DNA from: Carcharhinus amblyrhynchos
Taxonomy: Eukaryota
Direction: 5' to 3'
DNA length: 64,000 nt
NCBI GenBank assembly: GCA_965287045.1
Contig: OZ336872.1
Location: 41,106,001-41,170,000, forward strand
Made by a program: the position numbers and the translations under genes. Of the stretch, positions 10,662-64,000 are shown in pieces; the first letter of the stretch is position 1, and each line of letters opens with the position of its first letter. The notes under the pieces are model-generated. The model made no database searches. It was not told where the DNA came from and was given only the letters and a program-made list of their open reading frames with translations.

Positions 10662-10717
10662 ATGGAGGCTGTTGGAGTGCAAATGTTCAGACCATGTTCA
10701 TTCCAGAGCTTTTACGT
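10662..10717 (+). CDS. mitf: MITF alternative first exon, 1H (heart-isoform) type; coding part
   Basis: ATG at 10662 reads MEAVGVQMFRPCSFQSFY+GT, followed by a consensus donor GTAAGT (10718-10723). It closely resembles the human MITF-H N-terminus MEALRVQMFMPCSFESLYL as recalled. The 56 coding nt end in phase 2, matching the phase-2 acceptor of the exon at 45254 (GT|C = Val). Confidence 0.88.
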
Positions 10718-15354: not shown

Positions 15355-16942
15355 TATAAGAACATAGATAGGAGCAGGAGTAGGCCATCTGGCCCTTGAG
15401 CCTGCTCTGCTACTCAGTAAGATCATGGCTGATCTTTTTGTGGACTCAGCTCCACTTACCTGCCCACTCACCATAACCCTTAATTCCTTTACTGTTCAAA
15501 AATTTATCTATCCTTGCCTTAAAAACATTCAATGAGGTAGCCTCAACTGCTTCGCTGGGCAGGGAATTCCACAGATTCACAACCCTTTGTATGAAGAAGT
15601 TCCTTCTCAACTCAGTCCTAAATCTGCTTTCCCTTATTTTGAGGCTAGTTCTAGTTTCACCTGCCAGTGGAAACGTCATCCCTGCTTCTATCTTAGCTAC
15701 TCCTTTCATAATTTTCTATGTTTCTATAAGATCTCTCTTCATTCTTCTGAATTCCAATGAGTATAGCCCCAGTCTCCTTAGTCTCGCCTCATAAACCAAC
15801 CCTCTCAAATCCAGAATCAACCTAGTGAATATCCTCTGCAACCCCTCTAAAGTGCTAGTATATCCTTTCTCAAGTAAGGAGACCAAACCTGTATACAGTA
15901 CTCCAGGTGTGGCCTCACCAGCACCTTATACAGCGGCAACATAATCTCACTGTTTTTCAACTCCATTCCTCTAGCAATGAAGGACAAAATTCCATTTGCC
16001 TTCTTAATTACCTGATGCACCTGCAAATTAATTCCTTGATATTCCTGCACAACTCCTTGAGATTCTGTGCCCCTCTGCACAGCAGCATGGTGCAATTTTT
16101 TACCATTTAAATAATAGTCCATTTTACTGTTATTCCTACCAAAATGAATGATCTCACATTTATAAACATTGTATTCCATCTGCCAGACACTTGCCCACTC
16201 ACTTAGATTATCTATATCCCTTTGCAGAGTTTCAGTGTCCTCTGCACACTTTGTTCTTTCACCCATCTTAGTGTCATCTGTGAATTTTGACACACAACAC
16301 TTGGTCCCCAACTCCAAATTATCTATGTAAATCGTAAACAATTGCGGTCCCAACACTGATCCCTGAGGCACACCACTAGTTACTGATCGCCAACCAGAAA
16401 AACACCCATTTGCACCCCCTCTTTGCTTTCTGTTAGTTAACCAATCTTCTATCCTTGCAAATACATTACCCGAAACACTGTGCACTTTTATCTAATGTAG
16501 CAGTCTTTGGTACGGCACCTTGTTAAATGCCTTCTGGAAATCCAGATACACCACATCCACAGGTTCCCCATTGTCCACTGCACATGTAATACTCTCAAAG
16601 AATTTCACCAAATTAGTCAAACATGACCTGCACTTCATGAACCCATGCTGCGTCTTACCAATGGGACAATTTATATCCAGATGTCTCGCTGTTCCCTTGT
16701 TGATGATAGATTCAAGCATTTTCCATATTGCAGAAGTTCAGCTAACCTCCTTTATATCTACCTCCTTTTTTAAACAGCGGCGTCACATTTGCTGTTTTCC
16801 AATCTTGGGAGCCACCCCAGAGTCCAGCAAATTTTGGTAAATTACCACTAATGCATTTGCTATTTCTCCTGCCATCTTTTTTAGTACCTTGGGATGCATT
16901 CCATCAGGACCAGGAGACTTATCTACCTTTAGCCTCATTAAC
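15355..16942 (-). mobile_element. 5'-truncated CR1 LINE (RT domain plus 3' tail), relatively young
   Basis: ORFs 16492-16719, 15847-16485 and 15446-15709 give QHGFMKCRSCLTNL, VDVVYLDFQKAF, SGVPQGSVLGPQLF, KFTDDTK, RPHLEYC and RVVNLWNSLP; tail GGCCTACTCCTGCTCCTAT..GTTCTTAT. Confidence 0.95.
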
Positions 16943-21630: not shown

Positions 21631-23783
21631 ATGTTTGGGATTCCATGAAAAGTTATAACTAATGCCATCAGTTACGACTGAGTCTTTAACAATCTGAATA
21701 TTAGTTGTTGCTCAACAGTAGACCTAGCCCAGAAAAAATGCTTTGTTTGTACATTGTTGTTAAATATCTCTTATGATTTATGAAAATTTTTAAGCTAATT
21801 GTTTTTAAATCTGATTGCATACCTATTCTTCTGCTCTGTTTTAAAAAAAAATATCTGATTATTAATACTTTGCTGCTTGGCTAGCTGTGAGAATTCTTTA
21901 GTGTGATTGGCTCCTTTGACTGCTTGATACTGTCACCTCAGCACCATGCTGGGAATCTCCAACAATAGACAACACTACGATCCATTGCATGGCATGAGAT
22001 GCAAGATCTTTCAGTAAGCTTGCTTCAAGGTCAGCAGCACACGCCCTTGCTTTGCCATTTGGAAAATCCAGATCATCATGTCACTTAATGTAAAAATATA
22101 TATAAAAGAGACACAGAGGTTTTATATGGTGCATTTATTTTGTTGGAATATATTGGTTTTATTTGAAAGTAACATTCAAGTTGATTAGTAGAAGCTGCTA
22201 ACAGATTAACATTTCTGGCGCTCCATTTCAAGTTACTCTGCTTGTAGCCAAAAACAACTGTTGTTATGGGCCTGAGCACATGGAACCTGTAGCTGTGTTG
22301 GCTTTGCCTTAATTGTTATTTAGCCCTATGCTACTACAATTCTGCACACAAGTGCTGGATAATGAACTTAACTGACATTTCCTACTAGTTACGTGACTCC
22401 TCATGAAGGGGAGGGGACATTATTTCAAGCAATTATTGTTTGGCTGTTATTCTTGCTACGAATAAAGTGGCATTCACGGGTGGTGTTAGCAATTTGATGC
22501 TTATTGCAATACTTTCTAATTGCAGGCAGTTGAAGGAAGCACTGCAAAACTCTGTGTTGGATTGTCTCATTTATGCAGTTTTTGGATCAATGAAAATGCT
22601 TTCTAAGAATTTAAAAGCTACCTTGCTATTTCAAGCATTTCCACTCTATACTGTTCCTCTTTGCCACTGAAACCCATTTGGTTCATTAATGTCCTTTAAG
22701 GAAGGAAATCTGCTGTCCTTGCTTGGTCCTGCCTACACATGACTCTGACCCACAGTAATATATTGACTCTTACATGCTCTCTGAAATGGCCTAGCAAGCC
22801 ACTCTGTTGTGTCCAACCACTGTGAAGAAAACGCAAAGGAATGAAACTGGATGGACAACACGGCACCAACCTAGGCACTGGAAATGACTATGGCAAACCA
22901 GCTCTGTCAACCCTGCAAAGTCTTCCTTACTAACATCTGAGGGCTGGTGTAAAAGTTCAGAGAGCTATCTCACAGACTAGTCAAACAACAGACTGACACA
23001 GTCATACTCGTGGAATCATACCTTACAGATAATGTCCCAGACACCATCATCATCATTCCTGGGCGTGTTCTGCCCCACCATTAGGACAGACCCAGCAGAG
23101 GTGGCAGCACCCTAGTGTACAGTCAGGAGGGACGTTTACTGGCATTCCTCAAGATCAACTCTGGACTCTGAAGTTTCATGGCACCAGATCAAAAATGGAC
23201 AAGGAAACATCCTGCTGATTACCACAGACTGTGCCCCTCAGCTGATGAATCAGTACTCCTCTGCATTGAACACCACTTGAAGGAAATATTAAGAGTGGCA
23301 AGGCCACAGAATGTTTTCTGGATAGAGGACTTCAACATCCATCACTAAGAGTGACTCAGTACTACCACCACAGACTGAGTTGGCCAGGTACTAAAGGACA
23401 TAGCTGCTAGACTGGAACTGCAGGAGGGGCTGAGAGAACCAACAAGAGGGAACAACATACTTGACCTCATCCTCACCAAGCTCTCCTACAACAGATGCAT
23501 CTGACAGTATTGGTAGGAGTGACCACCACACAGGTCTTGCGGAGGTGAAATTCCGTCTTCACGTTGAGGATATCCTCCACTGTGTTGTGTGGCATGGTTA
23601 CTGTGCTGAAGGATAGACTTCAAATAGATCTAGCAACTCAAGGCTGGACATCCATAAGGCACTGTGAGCCATCAGCAGTAGCAGAATTGTACTTGACCGC
23701 AATCTCTGATCTCATGGCCTGGCATATCTCCCACTTGACCATTACCACCAAGCTCAGGGATCAATCCTGGCTCAATGTGGAGT

Positions 23784-24011
23784 CAGTAAAAAGTCTGACA
23801 ACACCAGGTTTTAGTCCAACCGATTTATTTGATAGTAAACTCACAAGCTTTCGGGTTAGCCTCAGATAGAGGCCAGAACTCTCCATTCACCTGACGAAGG
23901 GGCTAACCCGAAAGCTTGTGAGTTTACTATCAAATAAATTGGTTGGACTAAAACCTGGTGTTGTCAGACTTCTTACTGTGTTTACTCCAGTCCAATGCCG
24001 GCACATCCACA
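23784..24011 (+). mobile_element. Short Penelope-like (PLE) insertion with an inverted 5' segment
   Basis: Flanked by a 12-bp duplication TCAATGT(G/A)GAGT (23772-23783 and 24012-24023). Arms 23784-23861 and 23901-23978 are 76/78 reverse-complementary. The 3' end AATAAA..GTTGGACTAAAACCTGGTGTTGT...CCAGTCCAATGCCGGCACATCCACA resembles shark PLE terminal repeats as recalled. Confidence 0.8.
23886..23922 (+). ncRNA. Minimal type-I hammerhead ribozyme motif
   Basis: UUCAC-CUGACGA-A-GGGGCUAACCC-GAAA-GC-UU-GUGAG: core boxes CUGANGA and GAAA, stem II GGG/CCC, stem I UCAC/GUGA, and a loopless palindromic stem III (AGCU). Predicted cleavage after 23917. Confidence 0.7.
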
Positions 24012-24404
24012 TCAATGTAGAGTGCCAGAGGGCATGCCAGAAGTAATACTGGGGATAATTAAAAATGAGATGACAACCTTTGAAGCTACAACACAGGAAT
24101 ACTTGTGCGCCAAGCAGCATAGGTAGCAACTGATAGAGCTAAGCGATCCCACAACCAAAGGATGAGATCCAAGTTCTGAAGTCCTGCCACATTCAGCCGT
24201 GAATAGTGAATGAACAGATAAACAACTCACTGGAGAAGACTCCACGAATAGCCCTATCTTCAATGAAAGAGGACTCCACATCTGTGCAAAAGATAAGGCT
24301 GAAGCATTCACAATGAACTTCAGCCAAGTGGATGATCCATCATGGCCTCCTCAGGAAGTCCAAGTTCCACAATGTCAGTTTTCAGCCAGTTTGGTTCACT
24401 CCAT

Positions 24405-24522
24405 GGCTCTGATTTTACCGGCACAGTTGCCTGAGGTTCTTAAGATCATGCCCGAGGCTAATGGGGAATGCCATTCTGCGAGCCTGGATTTTCGGAGCTG
24501 CCGTGCCAGTAAAATCAGGGCC
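24405..24522. mobile_element. 118-bp MITE-like insertion in the LINE
   Basis: TIRs GGCTCTGATTTTACCGGCAC and GTGCCAGTAAAATCAGGGCC (18/20 complementary); LINE sequence resumes on both sides. Confidence 0.7.
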
Positions 24523-26042
24523 TGCATGATATCAAACAGCTGAAGGCACTGGATACTGAAAGACTATGGGCCTTGACAATAATCCAGCAATAGTCCTGAA
24601 GACTTGTGCTCCAGAACTTGCCGTGCCCTTAGCCAAGCTGTTCCAGGACAGCTACAACATTGAGGGAACCATGGCTATCCATGCTGGCTTCTTGATTGTT
24701 CGTGTTTCTACTTCTTTTTTCCTTTTAATATTGCAATCCTGGTTCTTTTGAGTATGCCCGTTTTGTGCCTACTTCGGGTCTCTGCTTTACACATATTTCT
24801 CTCCTTTTCTTTTGAATAGGCTTTTGGTATTCTGCCAATAGTGGGGCATAAATGGTATTGTGAAACAGTTGAAGTGGCAGTAAAGGTTGATAACATCTGG
24901 TTAATGTCAACTGGAGCTCGTGTGTCCAAGTTGCTTCACTATAAAGGCTAAAACCAAGTGGAGGTCAAATCATATAAAATTGAAACAAAACACTGCGCTT
25001 TGCTCTGCTTCGCTTTCTGCTGCTGTTTTTATTGTTTTGCATTAACTTAATTACGATGATAGATTAGAAACCAGTGGGGGTAGTGAGAGGAAAATGATGA
25101 CAATGCTGAGCCTTTGCAGGTACTCAAAAATATTATACGTTACCAGTGTAACAGTTAATAATTCAAGTTTCAAGTTACATTTTGAGTTTGAATCAGTGCA
25201 GACTGCTGTGTTATTAGGGCAAGTAATAAAAACATAACTGAAATAGTGTGGGGTCAGTAAAAGTAATTTGGACGCTGCAAAGTCCTTGAAATTATTGTTA
25301 TAATGAGTATAACAACCATGGAGAGCTGAAAGTTATCTGATGCTGTTTATGGCAGAGTTGCGATTTGTCTGAAATATTTTACTTTTTCAAATTACTTAAT
25401 GGACAAAACACTTGGAATCATTTTAGAACTAGTTACAGCACAGAAGGAGACCATTTGAGCAGTTGAGGACATGTTGGCTTTCTGCAAGAGCAATTTGGCT
25501 TGTCTCACACCCCTGACTTTTCCTCATTGCCATGTGAAATGAGGAACGTTGGTAGTTTTGCTACACAGCTTCAGTGCTAATTTTAACGACAAGTTCAGTA
25601 ACTCTGACTGTGGGTCAATTTTTGTGTAATCCACAGTGATGCACTTACATTTGTTTTGTGTTATACAATAGGATGATGTAAACTTTATACAAAGATGTAC
25701 CAGGGTTTAAAACAAGAGGTAGCTGGAGCAATGACTATATTGTTTTTCATTTTTAGCTCTTCCTAATTTGCAGTAATATTTCCAGAAGTTTACATTATTC
25801 CTAATTTAATTTTGACTAAATTTTACAAAAAAAAGCAAATTTACAAATCCCCTCAATTTTCAACAATCCCCATGCTTTTTCCATGCACATAAAGATTTGG
25901 TTGTGTGCATCTTTGAGCTTTACCTGGAGATAGCATCTGATGGGACCTGTTGTGTTTATCCTTGTGTCTTTAAGTATGCTACCAAATGATAAGTCCAATT
26001 AAATTTCAAAAATGATAACTCTTCAATTACTTCATGCTTCGT

Positions 26043-31074: not shown

Positions 31075-32386
31075 AGATTTTAAAGTGATTTATATAATAT
31101 GTGTCATTTGTCAACCAGTTATGAGATGCAAACTATCCTTATCGGAACACATTCAGCAATGCCTCTGGCCTCTACTGACCAACCTTGGTTCACGGTCTCC
31201 TAATGAATCTTATTTAAAGTTCTCATTCTTGTACTTTTATGACTTCACCTCCTTATGTCTATAACCTCTTCTAGCTTACAATCTCCACTTCCTCCTCTCT
31301 CTCTCTCTCTCTCTTTCTCCCCCCCCCCCCCCCCCACCTCCCCCAGCCCAAAGAAAGACTCAATAAAATAGCTGGCCTGAAGGCACTTGATTCAGATGCA
31401 CTCAGAAAGTGATACAGGAAAATTGTCCAGCTGCTGTCTGAGACCAAGAAACCTATCCAGCAACAGAGTCTATATTGGAATATCAATGATGACATCAACA
31501 ATAATATTGGATGAAAGGTTCCTATGTCGATCGTGATCCAGTTCAGAAATTGGAGTCACAAGCTATGGCTATGGCATCCGTGGAACTGAGATTGAATTTT
31601 GACAGCTGGAAGGCCCCTTTAATTTTTTTTCTTTTTTTTCTGATAGTGGGCATGGCTTAATAATCTGGTCTCTGAGGCCCAATTTCTGATCCAACCAGAG
31701 CCTGTAAATTGGTGGGTCTTTTTTTTGTGTACACCCTGCTTTTTCAACATGTCGGCCCCTGGTCAATAACTCCCCTTGCCCCGCTCAACAATCTTAAGTA
31801 TCCTTCTATCCCCTAACAATCCCCAGGGTTTTACTATGGGGCCACACAAAATCTGTAACATTCAAATGGGGTCTCATTGGGAAAATCTTTGGGAAGCACT
31901 ATTACAGAGTATCTGTTAGTGGGAGGAAACTGTCTTGAGGTGCTTCACGGAGGCAGGAGTTAAATTTAAGCAAATCTAGAGATCATTTGATGTGGTCAGA
32001 TGCTTGTTCGAAGAGGTAGTCCTGATAAAGGAGCCGCTTGATGGAAAGGCAGAGGAGTTCGGGGGGGTAATTCACTTCCTTGGTTCTGGACAGTTGAAGG
32101 CATAACTGTCTGCGGCATGATAAAAAGAAACATAGATGTAGAGACTGGGCTCAAAGTAAATGAAGATTTGGGCATGGTGGGGAGGATTGTAGGCTAGAAG
32201 AGGTTATAGACATAAGGAGGTGAAGTCATAAAGTATAATAGTGAGAACTTTAAATATGAGACATGAGGAGACCATGAACCAAGGTTGCTCAGTAGAGGCC
32301 AGAGCATTGCCGAATGTGTTCCAATAAGGATAGTTTGCATTTCATAACTGGTTGACAAATAACATGTATAAATCACTTTAAAATCT
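31075..32386. repeat. Local inverted repeat: arms 31075-31283 and 32185-32386, spacer ~900 bp
   Basis: For example atgacttcacctccttatgtctataacctcttctag and ctagaagaggttatagacataaggaggtgaagtcat are exact reverse complements; similarity extends over ~205 bp with small indels. Confidence 0.92.
31288..31345. repeat. (CT)n microsatellite plus poly-C pyrimidine tract
   Basis: ctctctctctctctctctctttctcc followed by a long C run. Confidence 0.9.
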
Positions 32387-45253: not shown

Positions 45254-45503
45254 CAATTCATCAGAGCCGCAAGGATCAGCTAAACCCCCATTAACCTCCT
45301 CCAATATGACATCACGAATACTGCTACGACAGCAGCTCATGCGCGAGCAAATGCAAGAGCAAGAACGACGAGAACAGCAGCAGCAGCAGCAGGCAGCACA
45401 GTTCATTCAGCAACGAGTGCCAGTCAGCCAGACACAGGCCATCAACGTCAGCGTCCCCACCAGCCTACCCACAAATACCCAGGTGCCAATGGAAGTCCTC
45501 AAG
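45254..45503 (+). CDS. mitf: MITF common exon 1B1b (second exon of non-melanocyte isoforms), N-terminal Q-rich MiT/TFE region
   Basis: Acceptor ...ttccaccacAG|C and donor AAG|GTATAG; length 250 nt. Translation NSSEPQGSAKPPLTSSNMTSRILLRQQLMREQMQEQERREQQQQQQAAQFIQQRVPVSQTQAINVSVPTSLPTNTQVPMEVLK matches recalled human MITF (SSSAEHPGASKPPISSSSMTSRILLRQQLMREQ...TQVPMEVLK). QRVPVSQT and VPMEVLK favour MITF over TFEB/TFE3/TFEC. Confidence 0.96.
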
Positions 45504-58629: not shown

Positions 58630-60413
58630 CACTTAGTTCCAGGATTGGAAAAGAGCAAATGTGATGCCAATGTTTAAAAAAAGGAGGTAGACCATAGATG
58701 GTTAACTATAAGCTGGTTAGCTTAATCTTTATAGGGGGGAAAATGCTTGAATCTAACATCAAGGAAGAAATAGTGAGACATCTGGATAGAAATTGTCCCA
58801 TTGGGCAGACACAACGTGGGTTCATGAAGGGCAGGTCACGTTTAACTAATTTACAGGAATTCTTTGAGGACTTTATGAGCATGGTAGACAACAGGGAACT
58901 GGTGGATGTGGTTTATCTGGATTTCCAGAAGGCATTCAATGAGATGCTGCACAAAAGACTGCTGCATAAGGTGCAGGAGTTCTGGGTAATCTATTAGTAT
59001 CGATAGAGGATTGGTTAATTAACAGAAAGCAAAGACTGGGAACAAATTGTTGTTTTTCTGGTTCGGTGACTAATGGTGTGCCTCAGAGATCAGTGTTGGG
59101 ACCGCAATTGTTTACGATTTACATTGATGATTTGGAGTTAGGGACCAAGTGTAGTGTGTCAAAGTTTGCAGATGTCACTAAGATGAATGGTAGAGCAAAG
59201 TGTGCAGAGGACACCGGAAGTCTGCGGAAGAATATAGATAGTTTAAGTGAGTGAGCAAGGGTCTGGCCGATGGGATACAATATTAGTAAGTGTGAGGTCA
59301 TCCATTTGGATAGGAATAATAGCAAAATAGACTATTATTTAAATTGCAGCATGTTGCTGTGCAGAGGGGGCCTGTGTGTCCTTGTGCATGAATTGCAAAT
59401 AGTTGGTTTGCAGGTAATTAAGAAGGCAAATGGAAATTTGTCCTTTATTGCTAGAGGGATAGAGTTTAAAAACAAGGAAGTTATGTTGCAGCTGTAGAAG
59501 GTGCTGGTGAGGTCACACCTGGAGTACTCTCTACAGTTTTGGTCTGCTTACTTGAGAAAGGATACAAATCATACAATCCCTATGGTGTAGAAGGAGGCTA
59601 TTCGGCCCATCGAGTCTGCACTGACCACAATCCTACCCAAGCCGTATTCCTGTAACCCCAATACAGAAATAGGGCCTGCTAATAATACCCTGCTAATTTA
59701 CCCCTGACGCTACAGTCCATTTAGCATAGCCAATCAACCTAACCTGCACATCTTTGGAGTGTGGGAGAAAACCGAGCACCAGAAGAAAACCCACGTGGAG
59801 GTGGGAAGAATGTGCAAACTCCACACAAACTGACCCAAGGCCAGAATTGGACCAGGTCCCTGGCGCTGTGAGGCAACAGTGCTAACACTCTGCCATCGTG
59901 CCGTCTGAATGTTCTGGCAGTGGAGGGGGTGCAGAGGAGAGTCACTGGAATTTAGAGGATTGGCTTATGAGGAGAGACTGAGTAGATTGGGACTATACTC
60001 ATTGACGTTTAGAAGAATGTGGGGTGATCTTATAGAAGCATATTAAATTATGAAGTGAATAGATAAGATAGAAGCAGGGAGGTTGTTTCCACTGGCAGGT
60101 GAAACTAGAACTAGGGGGCATAGCCTCAAAATAAGGGTGAACAGGTTTAGGACTGAATTGCTGATGAACTTCTTCACCCAAAGGGTTGTGAATCTGTGGA
60201 ATTCCCTACCCAGTGAAGCAGTTTAGGCTCCCTCATCGAATGTTTTTAAGGCAAGGATAGATAGGTTATTGAGCAGTAAAGGAATTAAGGGTTATGGTGA
60301 GTGGGCGGGTAAATGGAGCTGAGTCCACAAAAAGATCACCCATTTATCTTATTGAATGGTGGAGGAGGCTCGAGGAGCCAGATGGCCTACTTCTACTCCT
60401 AGTTATGTTCTTA
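58630..60413 (+). mobile_element. 5'-truncated CR1 LINE, same subfamily as 15355-16942 but opposite strand
   Basis: HLDRNCPIGQTQRGFMKGRSRLTNL, VDVVYLDFQKAF, GVPQRSVLGPQLF, KFADVTK; tail GATGGCCTACTTCTACTCCTAGTTATGTTCTTA. Confidence 0.95.
59567..59903 (-). mobile_element. HE1-type SINE nested in CR1
   Basis: Tail aatcatacaatccctatggtgtagaaggaggctattcggcccatcg, V-core, and head gctaacactctgccatcgtgccg. Confidence 0.9.
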
Positions 60414-62099: not shown

Positions 62100-64000
62100 T
62101 GCACATCGACAGCAGCATCGTATACGGCAGAAAGCATCAGGAAGGTGACCATCAAATTCCCCAGCATAAATTGGAAGGATGTCCAAATTCAGGCCTTTTA
62201 AAGAAAAGACAGATATATTTTTAGATTTATCTGAAATGGGATGGATAAACAAATCTTGAAAATCAAGATACTACTGAAAGTGAGAGATGCGCAAAGTAAA
62301 CACTTTGGGCCTATCTGACAAGGATCAGAAGGATCCTGCCAAGCTGTGGAACATTCTGGAGGATCAGCTTGGTGTAAAGACTAAATTTTAAATGCATTAT
62401 TTGGAGCTGATGGCTTACAGAAAACATCTCCAAGAAGCAATTGATCAATTCATCATCAGATACTTTAAGGGTAAGTGGTGTGATTTCTTGAAAGCCAAGC
62501 TATCTGAATGAATCGTGGAGCAGGTTATAGCTTGAACACCAATTGAAGCTTTCCAAAAAGATCTTTTGCAGTGAAAGAAAGCTCATGATAGTGACATAAA
62601 AGATGGCAAAACATTGTAGCTGGATAATAATATCTGGAAGCATTAGGTGCAACTGTCAGTATCAATGTGATGGCAAGGATGCAGAAAGCTTGCAAGTCAT
62701 ATGGGAAATGCAGTTCGCTGCACCCACTGTGAAGCTGCCCTGCATTCCAAGATCTTTAAGTTAAGTGGCGTAAAAGGACATAGGGCTCATCTATTGCTGG
62801 AAATTATATTCCAGAAGTAAGATGCAACCAAACAAAAAGTGCATACAGCCTGCTTGTCACAACAATGGAGAGATCCACTTAAGCCCTAGCACATACGCAA
62901 GATTAGTGGCAAGTCGGAGCAGGGTGAAGAAGTAGATCAGAAATATCAACTGGAAAATGAACAGGCTTTTACACATTGATTTTGTTCACAAGTTGTGAAC
63001 GTTCATAAACAGTTGAAACCTTTGCTACTATCAACATCATATGCCCAATAGCATCAAACGGTTCATAAACAGAATTGACACAGGTGCAAATGCAAATATC
63101 TTACCAGTTGGAATCATGAAGAATATGTATATGGATCATTGGAACCTATGATTTACAAACTAATTGCATGCAATGAGTTACTCATTCACTGCATTGGTAC
63201 ACTAACACTGAAATGCAGCTATGGCAAGTCTGCATGGAAACCACTAGTATTCTATCCAGTGGACATGAGCGGACCAGCTGTAGCTAGGTTATCAACATGT
63301 TTAGAATTCAACATTATGACCATGCGTAAGATTGCCAAGTTACCAATCACAGCAGAAGACGCTGAGAAGAATCTCATTGAATCAATCCATGACCTACAGC
63401 AGATGTACCCAGACACATTCAATGCCATAGGGAACTTCAGAGGTGTGATTATGTTACACCTCAGAAGTGCAGTCCATAAGTCAACCCTTCTCGAAAGTAT
63501 AGTTTGCAGGTACAGAAAGAACTAAAGAGTGAACTGAATGACATGGCGCATTTGGCATTATATTTTGTGTGCACCAACACACCGACTGATGCAGTTACAG
63601 ATGTGTGCACTGAGAAAAGATGGCACAGTGTGGGCGTGACACAAAATGCCAAAATCTCTCTCCAAGAAGATGCCCACATAAGATTCTAGCATTGGAAGGA
63701 TTGAATTCCAAAGTCACAAGAGCAAAGTTTTTGATATGTCAGTTCATTTGGCAGAGTCATCTTAAGAAATCCTTAGTTCCAGGGCACCATTTCGAAAATA
63801 CTGCTTCCCAGAGATTACCTGTTAGTTGATCCATCAGTCAGGATCTGTTCCAGCAGCATATAGGCAGAATTACAGAAAACGTTATTCAATGGTATTATGT
63901 TGATGGGCAAAACCAAAGAAGAGTATGTTGGTAAGCCAGCTACAGCTGGTCTGCTCATGACCATTGGATAGAATACTTGTGGTTTCCATGCAGACTTGCC
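62100..64000 (+). mobile_element. Degenerate Gypsy gag-protease-RT region running off the window end
   Basis: gag-like LELMAYRKHLQEAIDQFI, Zn-knuckle remnant CPAFQD, aspartic protease motif IDTGANANILP (63074-63106), DLQQMYPDTFNAIGNF, and RT-like SQDLFQ; many stops. Confidence 0.85.

Follow-up and report, generated by a model that had tools for sequence, protein, structure and literature searches.

The closest described relatives of the insert reported here are Penelope-like elements (PLEs) and the minimal hammerhead ribozymes that they carry; the comparisons drawn below follow the accessible parts of the cited papers. In EN+ PLEs, the 5' end bore a copy that was both inverted and 5'-truncated, only one of the two ends had a tail (30–40 bp), and a hammerhead lay inside the terminal repeat (bioRxiv 10.1101/2021.04.23.441226). 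In rotifer PLEs, the inverted pLTR was shorter than the direct one, the tail measured 31 bp, the target duplications were 8–10 bp long, and head-to-head was the commonest arrangement (PMC3846280). Some minimal hammerheads have been described 100–700 bp apart on opposite strands. Every vertebrate lineage surveyed has been reported to contain PLEs, a chimaera among them. Minimal hammerheads are abundant, with about 4,000 in the coelacanth and about 9,000 in Xenopus, mostly inside truncated PLE copies (PMC4209133).

Poseidon of Anolis carolinensis (PAc) gives the biochemical reference. Its ORF starts at stem II and its RNA is cut 26 nt in, while an AC-rich stem loop 111–118 nt in is where reverse transcription starts, the accessible text not stating which of two starts is meant (PMC11167929). 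The PAc protein nicked and extended both strands, and the tail corresponded to the span between two reverse transcription starts (PMC11167929). A second related group, the PLE-related non-LTR retrozymes, was reported from one chondrichthyan genome, and about 43% of the Xenopus retrozyme copies overlapped introns (bioRxiv 10.64898/2026.07.22.740005). Host-adopted intronic ribozymes such as that of CPEB3 are conserved and need no partner to fold and cut.

The locus lies in a 64-kb stretch of Carcharhinus amblyrhynchos DNA, which was analysed as a whole and is called the window here. The insert occupied 23784–24011, and its length of 228 nt was upheld. Two arms of 78 nt each, the left one inverted and the right one forward, enclose a spacer of 39 nt, and beyond the forward arm a further 33 nt stay unpaired. 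The inverted arm (23784–23861, minus strand) was a 5'-truncated copy of the element end, which contained the 3' half of a hammerhead only and no CUGANGA box. The spacer (23862–23900, plus strand) formed the loop of a hairpin and held the inversion junction, the 5' strand of stem I, and the CUGACGA core. The forward arm (23901–23978, plus strand) was complementary to the left arm at 76 of 78 positions (97%), so that the two arms formed a head-to-head inverted repeat taking up 156 of the 228 bases. This inverted repeat is the main feature of the insert and was overlooked in the initial annotation. The extension on one side (23979–24011, plus strand) had an AC-rich end and is taken as the PLE tail; the point where it gives way to the target duplication can be placed only to within a few bases.

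The insert was flanked by a target duplication, with the left copy at 23772–23783 (TCAATGTGGAGT, 12 bp) and the right copy at 24012–24023 (TCAATGTAGAGT), both given on the plus strand. The 12-bp duplication first described was therefore present, but it was imperfect, with 11 of 12 positions identical and one mismatch. In 200,000 random trials with 61 offsets allowed, a match of at least 11/12 turned up 87 times. The last six bases of the left duplicate (23778–23783) were complementary to 23984–23989 of the tail, a match expected in 0.3–0.9% of random 12-mers, and these six bases include the one position at which the duplicates differ. A further complement of seven bases joined the left duplicate to the end of the tail. 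The six-base complement may reflect microhomology used for priming or joining, or may be a chance match seen post hoc.

The arms diverged at 2 of 78 positions (2.6%, 95% interval 0.3–9.0%). We give no absolute age for the insert, because two differences are too loose a measure and palindromes can be homogenised. Searches of the window for further copies gave only matches of at most 24 nt with blastn (E ≥ 0.59), and nhmmer recovered the two arms together with one match at E 6.6. With two mismatches allowed, the 13-mer search matched nothing in the window except the two arms. Prokaryotic genomes were scanned twice by pattern for stray copies, with 0 matches each time. One minus-strand frame of the insert gave two candidates in a protein search, neither of them at E ≤ 1, and the longest forward frame had no Pfam match. 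A stop-free frame of 58 codons (23870–24046, plus strand) crossed the forward copy and the tail into the surrounding LINE; it lacked a start codon at stem II and had no Pfam match. We presume that a repeat resembling the insert is widespread in shark genomes, and this presumption was given no evidential weight.

The hammerhead described in the initial annotation (CUGACGA and GAAA boxes, stems I and II, and a loopless AGCU) was borne out at 23885–23923 on the plus strand by the published descriptor for PLE minimal hammerheads. Stem I (23885–23890/23918–23923) had 6 bp, AUUCAC/GUGAGU, including one G-U pair. The CUGACGA core was located at 23891–23897 and was followed by a bulged A at 23898. Stem II (23899–23901/23907–23909) was formed by GGG/CCC and had merely 3 bp, closed by the 5-nt loop GCUAA. 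The GAAA box (23910–23913) ran into the loopless palindrome AGCU (23913–23916), and H17 was U23917, which placed the predicted cut after 23917. All catalytic nucleotides were intact. The 3' flank (23924–23940) was AU-rich, and the 5' flank (23873–23884) was C-rich, with no more than 12–23 nt left before the junction.

The RNAMotif-type search that had been suggested was run with the published descriptor (PMC4209133 Fig. S7, RNAmotif: stem I 3–7 bp, CUGANGA(N), stem II 3–7 bp, loop 3–10, GAAANNUH). Over both strands of the 64 kb it gave a single match, at 23891, that is, at this hammerhead. The same descriptor produced six matches over 1000 dinucleotide shuffles, equal to 0.006 per 64-kb window. 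Three traits of the family were also present, namely the bulged A23898, the G10.1–C11.1 pair (G23899–C23909), and the palindromic 15.2–16.2 positions (G23914/C23915), and the bulge, the pair and the palindrome jointly gave 0 matches in 1000 shuffles. The loose CUGANGA...GAAA pattern occurred at 11 sites in the window, of which one satisfied the descriptor. The covariance-model (Rfam) search, also suggested earlier, did not bear the motif out: no hammerhead reached the gathering score in the window, and none was found among the five matches with E ≤ 10 in 23700–24100. As the motif has no stem III, this miss is probably unsurprising. The left arm was also considered as a possible minus-strand hammerhead and rejected, as it contained the 3' half only and had no CUGANGA box.

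Compared with published PLE minimal hammerheads, the motif shared CUGANGA with one bulge, G10.1–C11.1, the palindromic 15.2/16.2 positions, and the missing loop 3 (PMC4209133). The short stem I and the AU-rich downstream flank were also common to both (PMC4209133). Read by eye from the published alignment, a loopless AGCU occurred in 4 of 56 examples, including Sm1 of S. mansoni and that of the turtle Chrysemys, and just one of the 56 had a stem II as short as 3 bp (PMC4209133). Over the short stretch left before the junction, the upstream flank was pyrimidine-rich here and U-rich in the published examples, from which the adjacent antisense copy over the 3' half also set this motif apart (PMC4209133).

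A donor-like GTGAGT was observed at 23918, directly at the predicted cut. In the tail, an acceptor-like pyrimidine tract with CAG ended at 23990; the two would bound a 73-nt intron with the scissile bond as its 5' splice site. PLEs may bear introns beside the hammerhead (PMC4209133). This pair (23918–23990) is likely due to chance, because the plus strand of the window contained 22 donors and 243 acceptors of this kind and stem I dictates the first three bases of the donor.

By its anatomy, the insert matched the EN+ PLE signature with a hammerhead in the terminal repeat, a head-to-head inverted and truncated copy, a 33-nt tail at one end, and a target duplication. The inverted copy and the one-sided tail fit the published signature and thereby made the PLE assignment stronger. 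The proposed PLE-type insertion thus gained support beyond the grounds on which it was first suggested, the parentage being read from anatomy. With the rotifer PLEs the insert shared the shorter head-to-head 5' copy, the tail at one end, the duplication, and a non-LTR target (cf. Pen2); it differed in its 12-bp duplication against 8–10 bp and in having no long palindrome at the junction (PMC3846280). Unlike EN+ PLEs, it had no ORF and comprised two end fragments only (78 nt and at most 150 nt) (PMC3846280, bioRxiv 10.1101/2021.04.23.441226, PMC8969392). Without an RT and GIY-YIG ORF, this 228-nt fragment is not an autonomous element, and it would more readily be explained as an insertion product truncated twice at the 5' side than as a non-coding family of its own.

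Measured to the end of the tail, the distance was 94 nt from the predicted cut and 113 nt from where stem II starts. The insert resembled PAc in having its hammerhead about 85–95 nt upstream of the element end, an AC-rich end, and a tail of 30–40 nt (PMC11167929). This likeness is one of geometry and not of sequence; the insert had no start codon at stem II, and its target was not AT-rich, whereas PAc prefers AT-rich targets (PMC11167929). The 6-nt complementarity between target and element RNA was another difference, as PAc initiates without homology (PMC11167929).

From this geometry we infer a two-strand route. A PLE endonuclease would have nicked the two strands of the decayed LINE at sites about 12 bp from each other. 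Reverse transcription on the element RNA would then have been primed at both nicks, with a distal start at about 24011 and a proximal start 33 nt earlier (23978), and two short cDNAs that stopped early would have been joined head to head. Priming on two strands followed by joining would account for the duplication, the head-to-head copies, and the one-sided tail together.

We consider a fold-back route with an unchanged PLE origin to be somewhat the less probable of the two. Here the first cDNA would have snapped back at the spacer and been copied in a DNA-dependent manner, and microhomology would have joined it to the left flank. Self-priming from palindromes at inverted junctions is the mechanism favoured in the accessible text of PMC3846280, and it would yield the same anatomy. 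The first four bases of the spacer (TCAG) were complementary to the CTGA of the core, the nhmmer reverse match continued to 23777, and the six-base complement between the left duplicate and the tail would suit such joining, although it was spotted post hoc. Against this, the junction showed no true palindrome, just a largely unpaired spacer of 39 nt, and fold-back does not predict an arm that stops 33 nt short, which is the length of the tail. Because of this stop and the absent palindrome, we place two-strand priming slightly ahead of fold-back. A single locus is unable to separate the two, and the functional verdict on the hammerhead is the same under either.

The insert was located about 13 kb inside a 34.5-kb MITF intron. 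Upstream, an alternative first coding exon of MITF (10662–10717, plus strand) with a GTAAGT donor was identified by tblastn to chondrichthyan MITF N-termini, and its product was 84% and 89% identical over 19 aa to 2 of the 18 shark, ray, and chimaera proteins tried. This alternative first exon, which we take to be exon 1H, was kept in sharks and rays. Most MITF isoforms in the databases have a longer first exon further upstream, which was absent from the 64-kb window. Downstream, the common N-terminal exon (1B1b equivalent) lay at 45254–45503 on the plus strand (Pfam PF15951, E 1.5e-18); its protein was 100% identical to a Cetorhinus maximus MITF entry and 99% identical to three carpet-shark entries, among the 120 listed of 545 matches. 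MITF alternative first exons splice onto exon 1B1b (PMC6672050, PMC2869019). Both exons were on the plus strand and gave an in-frame junction on splicing, which upheld the sense orientation of the insert relative to MITF pre-mRNA.

Within this intron the insert was hosted by a decayed LINE (22900–24665, plus strand, outer limits judged by eye) with an AP-endonuclease domain at about 23256–23507. PF14529 matched the domain with E 9.6e-5, short of the curated cut-off and in just one of six read-through frames, and 10 short fragments of the LINE had no Pfam match at E < 0.05. The ESM Atlas returned leads only, with endonuclease clusters scoring 0.77–0.78. Homologue searches with the LINE gave one weak repetitive match, which was not used, and otherwise none. 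The insert together with one duplicate measured 240 nt, and its excision preserved the reading frame of the LINE. A second small insert was observed in the same LINE at 24405–24522 (118 bp), which was MITE-like with 20-nt terminal inverted repeats (90%).

Other repeats were noted along the window. Two segments of the MITF intron, 31075–31283 and 32185–32386, formed an inverted pair of about 209 nt with 89% identity, about 900 nt apart, and are a second potential intronic duplex. A further inverted pair (63223–63298 and 63925–64000, at least 76 nt, 91% identical) ran off the end of the window. A stop-free frame of 148 codons at 63079–63522 had no Pfam match. Two inverted copies of the 3' part of a LINE (15357–16808 and 58639–60413) were about 79–83% identical, and the first of them matched the RT domain PF00078 with E 1.1e-10.

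Folding was computed with an equilibrium nearest-neighbour model, which leaves out proteins, helicases, and editing. The whole insert folded as one long hairpin of −144.2 kcal/mol (z = −20.5), and none of 200 shuffles was as stable. It is apparent from this fold that the hairpin duplex and the ribozyme compete for the same bases: the forward arm begins inside stem II, and the duplex takes in the 3' strands of both stems together with the GAAA box, the AGCU, and the scissile bond. Forcing the hammerhead in the whole insert cost +34.7 kcal/mol at 37 °C and +40.6 kcal/mol at 20 °C. When the left arm was absent, the cost was only 1.5–1.6 kcal/mol (37 °C), and the probability of stems I and II reached about 0.6–0.85.

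Transcript prefixes gave the same picture, with the hairpin favoured over the hammerhead in 16 of 16. Pair probabilities of stems I and II were 0.0 in all nine prefixes ending at 23915–23978, and in the seven prefixes ending at 23909–23915 the stem II probability was at most 0.0015. Already in the prefix ending at 23909, with nine bases of the forward arm out, arm pairing had a value of 0.97 against 0.0015 for stem II. On MITF, RNA polymerase is predicted to reach the antisense arm before the ribozyme. The emerging 3' half of the ribozyme would then pair with this arm into a 78-bp duplex, to be removed with the intron. The usual fate of long intronic duplexes is A-to-I editing and decay. From such general knowledge, editing and decay would be the likeliest fate of this duplex also, with little effect on MITF.

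Considering its stability, the 78-bp duplex might serve as a functional miRNA or siRNA precursor in the MITF intron, and rotifer Penelope copies are described as yielding small RNAs. We hold this to be improbable. The best Rfam match was the plant MIR841, whose 60 bits fall far short of its gathering score of 200 and point to a generic long stem. Animal pre-miRNAs do not resemble a near-perfect duplex with a 39-nt loop.

That the hammerhead cuts, or can cut, MITF pre-mRNA and so alters its isoform output, as is reported for the intronic CPEB3 ribozyme, is very improbable. The intact catalytic nucleotides, the sense orientation, and the formation of stems I and II in the absence of the left arm speak for such cleavage. 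Conserved intronic hammerheads occur in amniotes. Host genes can be tuned by ribozymes in their introns (PMC10919898), and the insert shares with CPEB3-type ribozymes a self-cleaving motif in sense orientation within a long intron of a regulatory gene. CPEB3-type ribozymes are conserved and act as monomers, whereas the hammerhead of the insert has no stem III, belongs to one transposon nested in another, and would be blocked according to the predicted fold. Its position in an insert within the decayed LINE is outside conserved sequence. Transcription from the upstream MITF exon always produces the left arm first, and the 34.7 kcal/mol penalty then applies.

No dimer partner for the hammerhead was found in the 64-kb window, and the intermolecular AGCU duplex contributed just −2.5 kcal/mol. 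According to the accessible text of PMC4209133, a schistosome minimal hammerhead with AGCU showed no cleavage as a monomer and weak cleavage as a dimer or trimer; the 3-bp stem II, rare in the same alignment, is a further point against activity. Among the Xenopus retrozyme dimers described, eight of nine showed no cleavage. The PAc ribozyme cut only with its protein, and according to the accessible text none of the RNA-seq reads ended at its cut site (PMC11167929).

The suggestion of a potential self-cleaving motif in MITF pre-mRNA was thus not supported, as the upstream antisense arm wins by the computed margin and the window holds no partner; the inverted arm, by pairing over the 3' half of the ribozyme, undoes the functional suggestion. 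The fragment proposed for a cleavage assay (23870–23940) omits the blocking arm, and cleavage of that fragment would therefore be uninformative on the pre-mRNA. Host adoption as an intronic ribozyme is improbable on the same computed folding in host pre-mRNA, with pair probabilities of about 0 in all 16 prefixes.

A MITE with 78-bp terminal repeats and an incidental hammerhead match is still more improbable. The long near-perfect inverted arms with a short core would suit such an element, and other inverted-repeat elements were present in the window. What excludes a MITE is the lack of a duplication next to the arms: no direct repeat of 2–12 bp was found at boundary shifts of −3 to +3, and the sole duplication lay 33 nt beyond the right arm. 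A strict hammerhead is moreover expected by chance in fewer than 1 in 1000 windows.

A retrozyme array was also excluded, because the tandem search found no tandem array at the locus; a single core was present in the window. The insert is, like the non-LTR retrozymes, non-coding and pLTR-related with a type-I hammerhead, but retrozymes form head-to-tail tandem arrays, whereas the insert is a single head-to-head inversion with a target duplication (bioRxiv 10.64898/2026.07.22.740005). The least probable explanation is an assembly or library artefact from a fold-back read. Inverted duplications are a familiar type of artefact, and complex PLE insertions are described as hard for assemblers, but the arms differ at 2/78 positions and the duplicates at 1/12, and the host LINE runs on at both sides.

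Taken together, the insert is likely a dead, doubly 5'-truncated PLE end. Its hairpin is predicted to trap the minimal hammerhead, so that cutting of MITF pre-mRNA likely does not occur. A more far-reaching reading is that inverted PLE copies act as an antisense lock, which lets sense copies persist in introns, and that the junction records top-strand priming guided by the six-nucleotide match between target and element RNA, a kind of guidance not seen in the in vitro Anolis work. We regard this reading as doubtful. It is rated low because monomeric minimal hammerheads seem to be nearly inactive, so there is perhaps little to select against. If it were true, sense intronic copies would be enriched for arms that extend past the cut site, compared with antisense or intergenic copies.

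PLE hammerheads are already known and abundant, and a single locus is of small weight. Among the titles listed by our literature searches, none described a PLE hammerhead from a shark, antisense blocking by an inverted pLTR, or twin priming in PLEs. The family of this insert may already be recorded in the chondrichthyan data of the 2026 preprint (bioRxiv 10.64898/2026.07.22.740005) or in the Anolis sequence file.

The insert adds a shark example to a motif class whose published alignment of 56 examples has no cartilaginous fish (PMC4209133). It is also a compact and clean record of the unexplained inversion-plus-tail signature of PLEs, which makes it useful for weighing two-strand priming against fold-back across copies. 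As this insert carries its own blocker, calls of intronic ribozyme motifs need the upstream context. If cleavage of MITF pre-mRNA occurred despite the hairpin, it would be surprising, and it would be relevant to the control of MITF isoforms.
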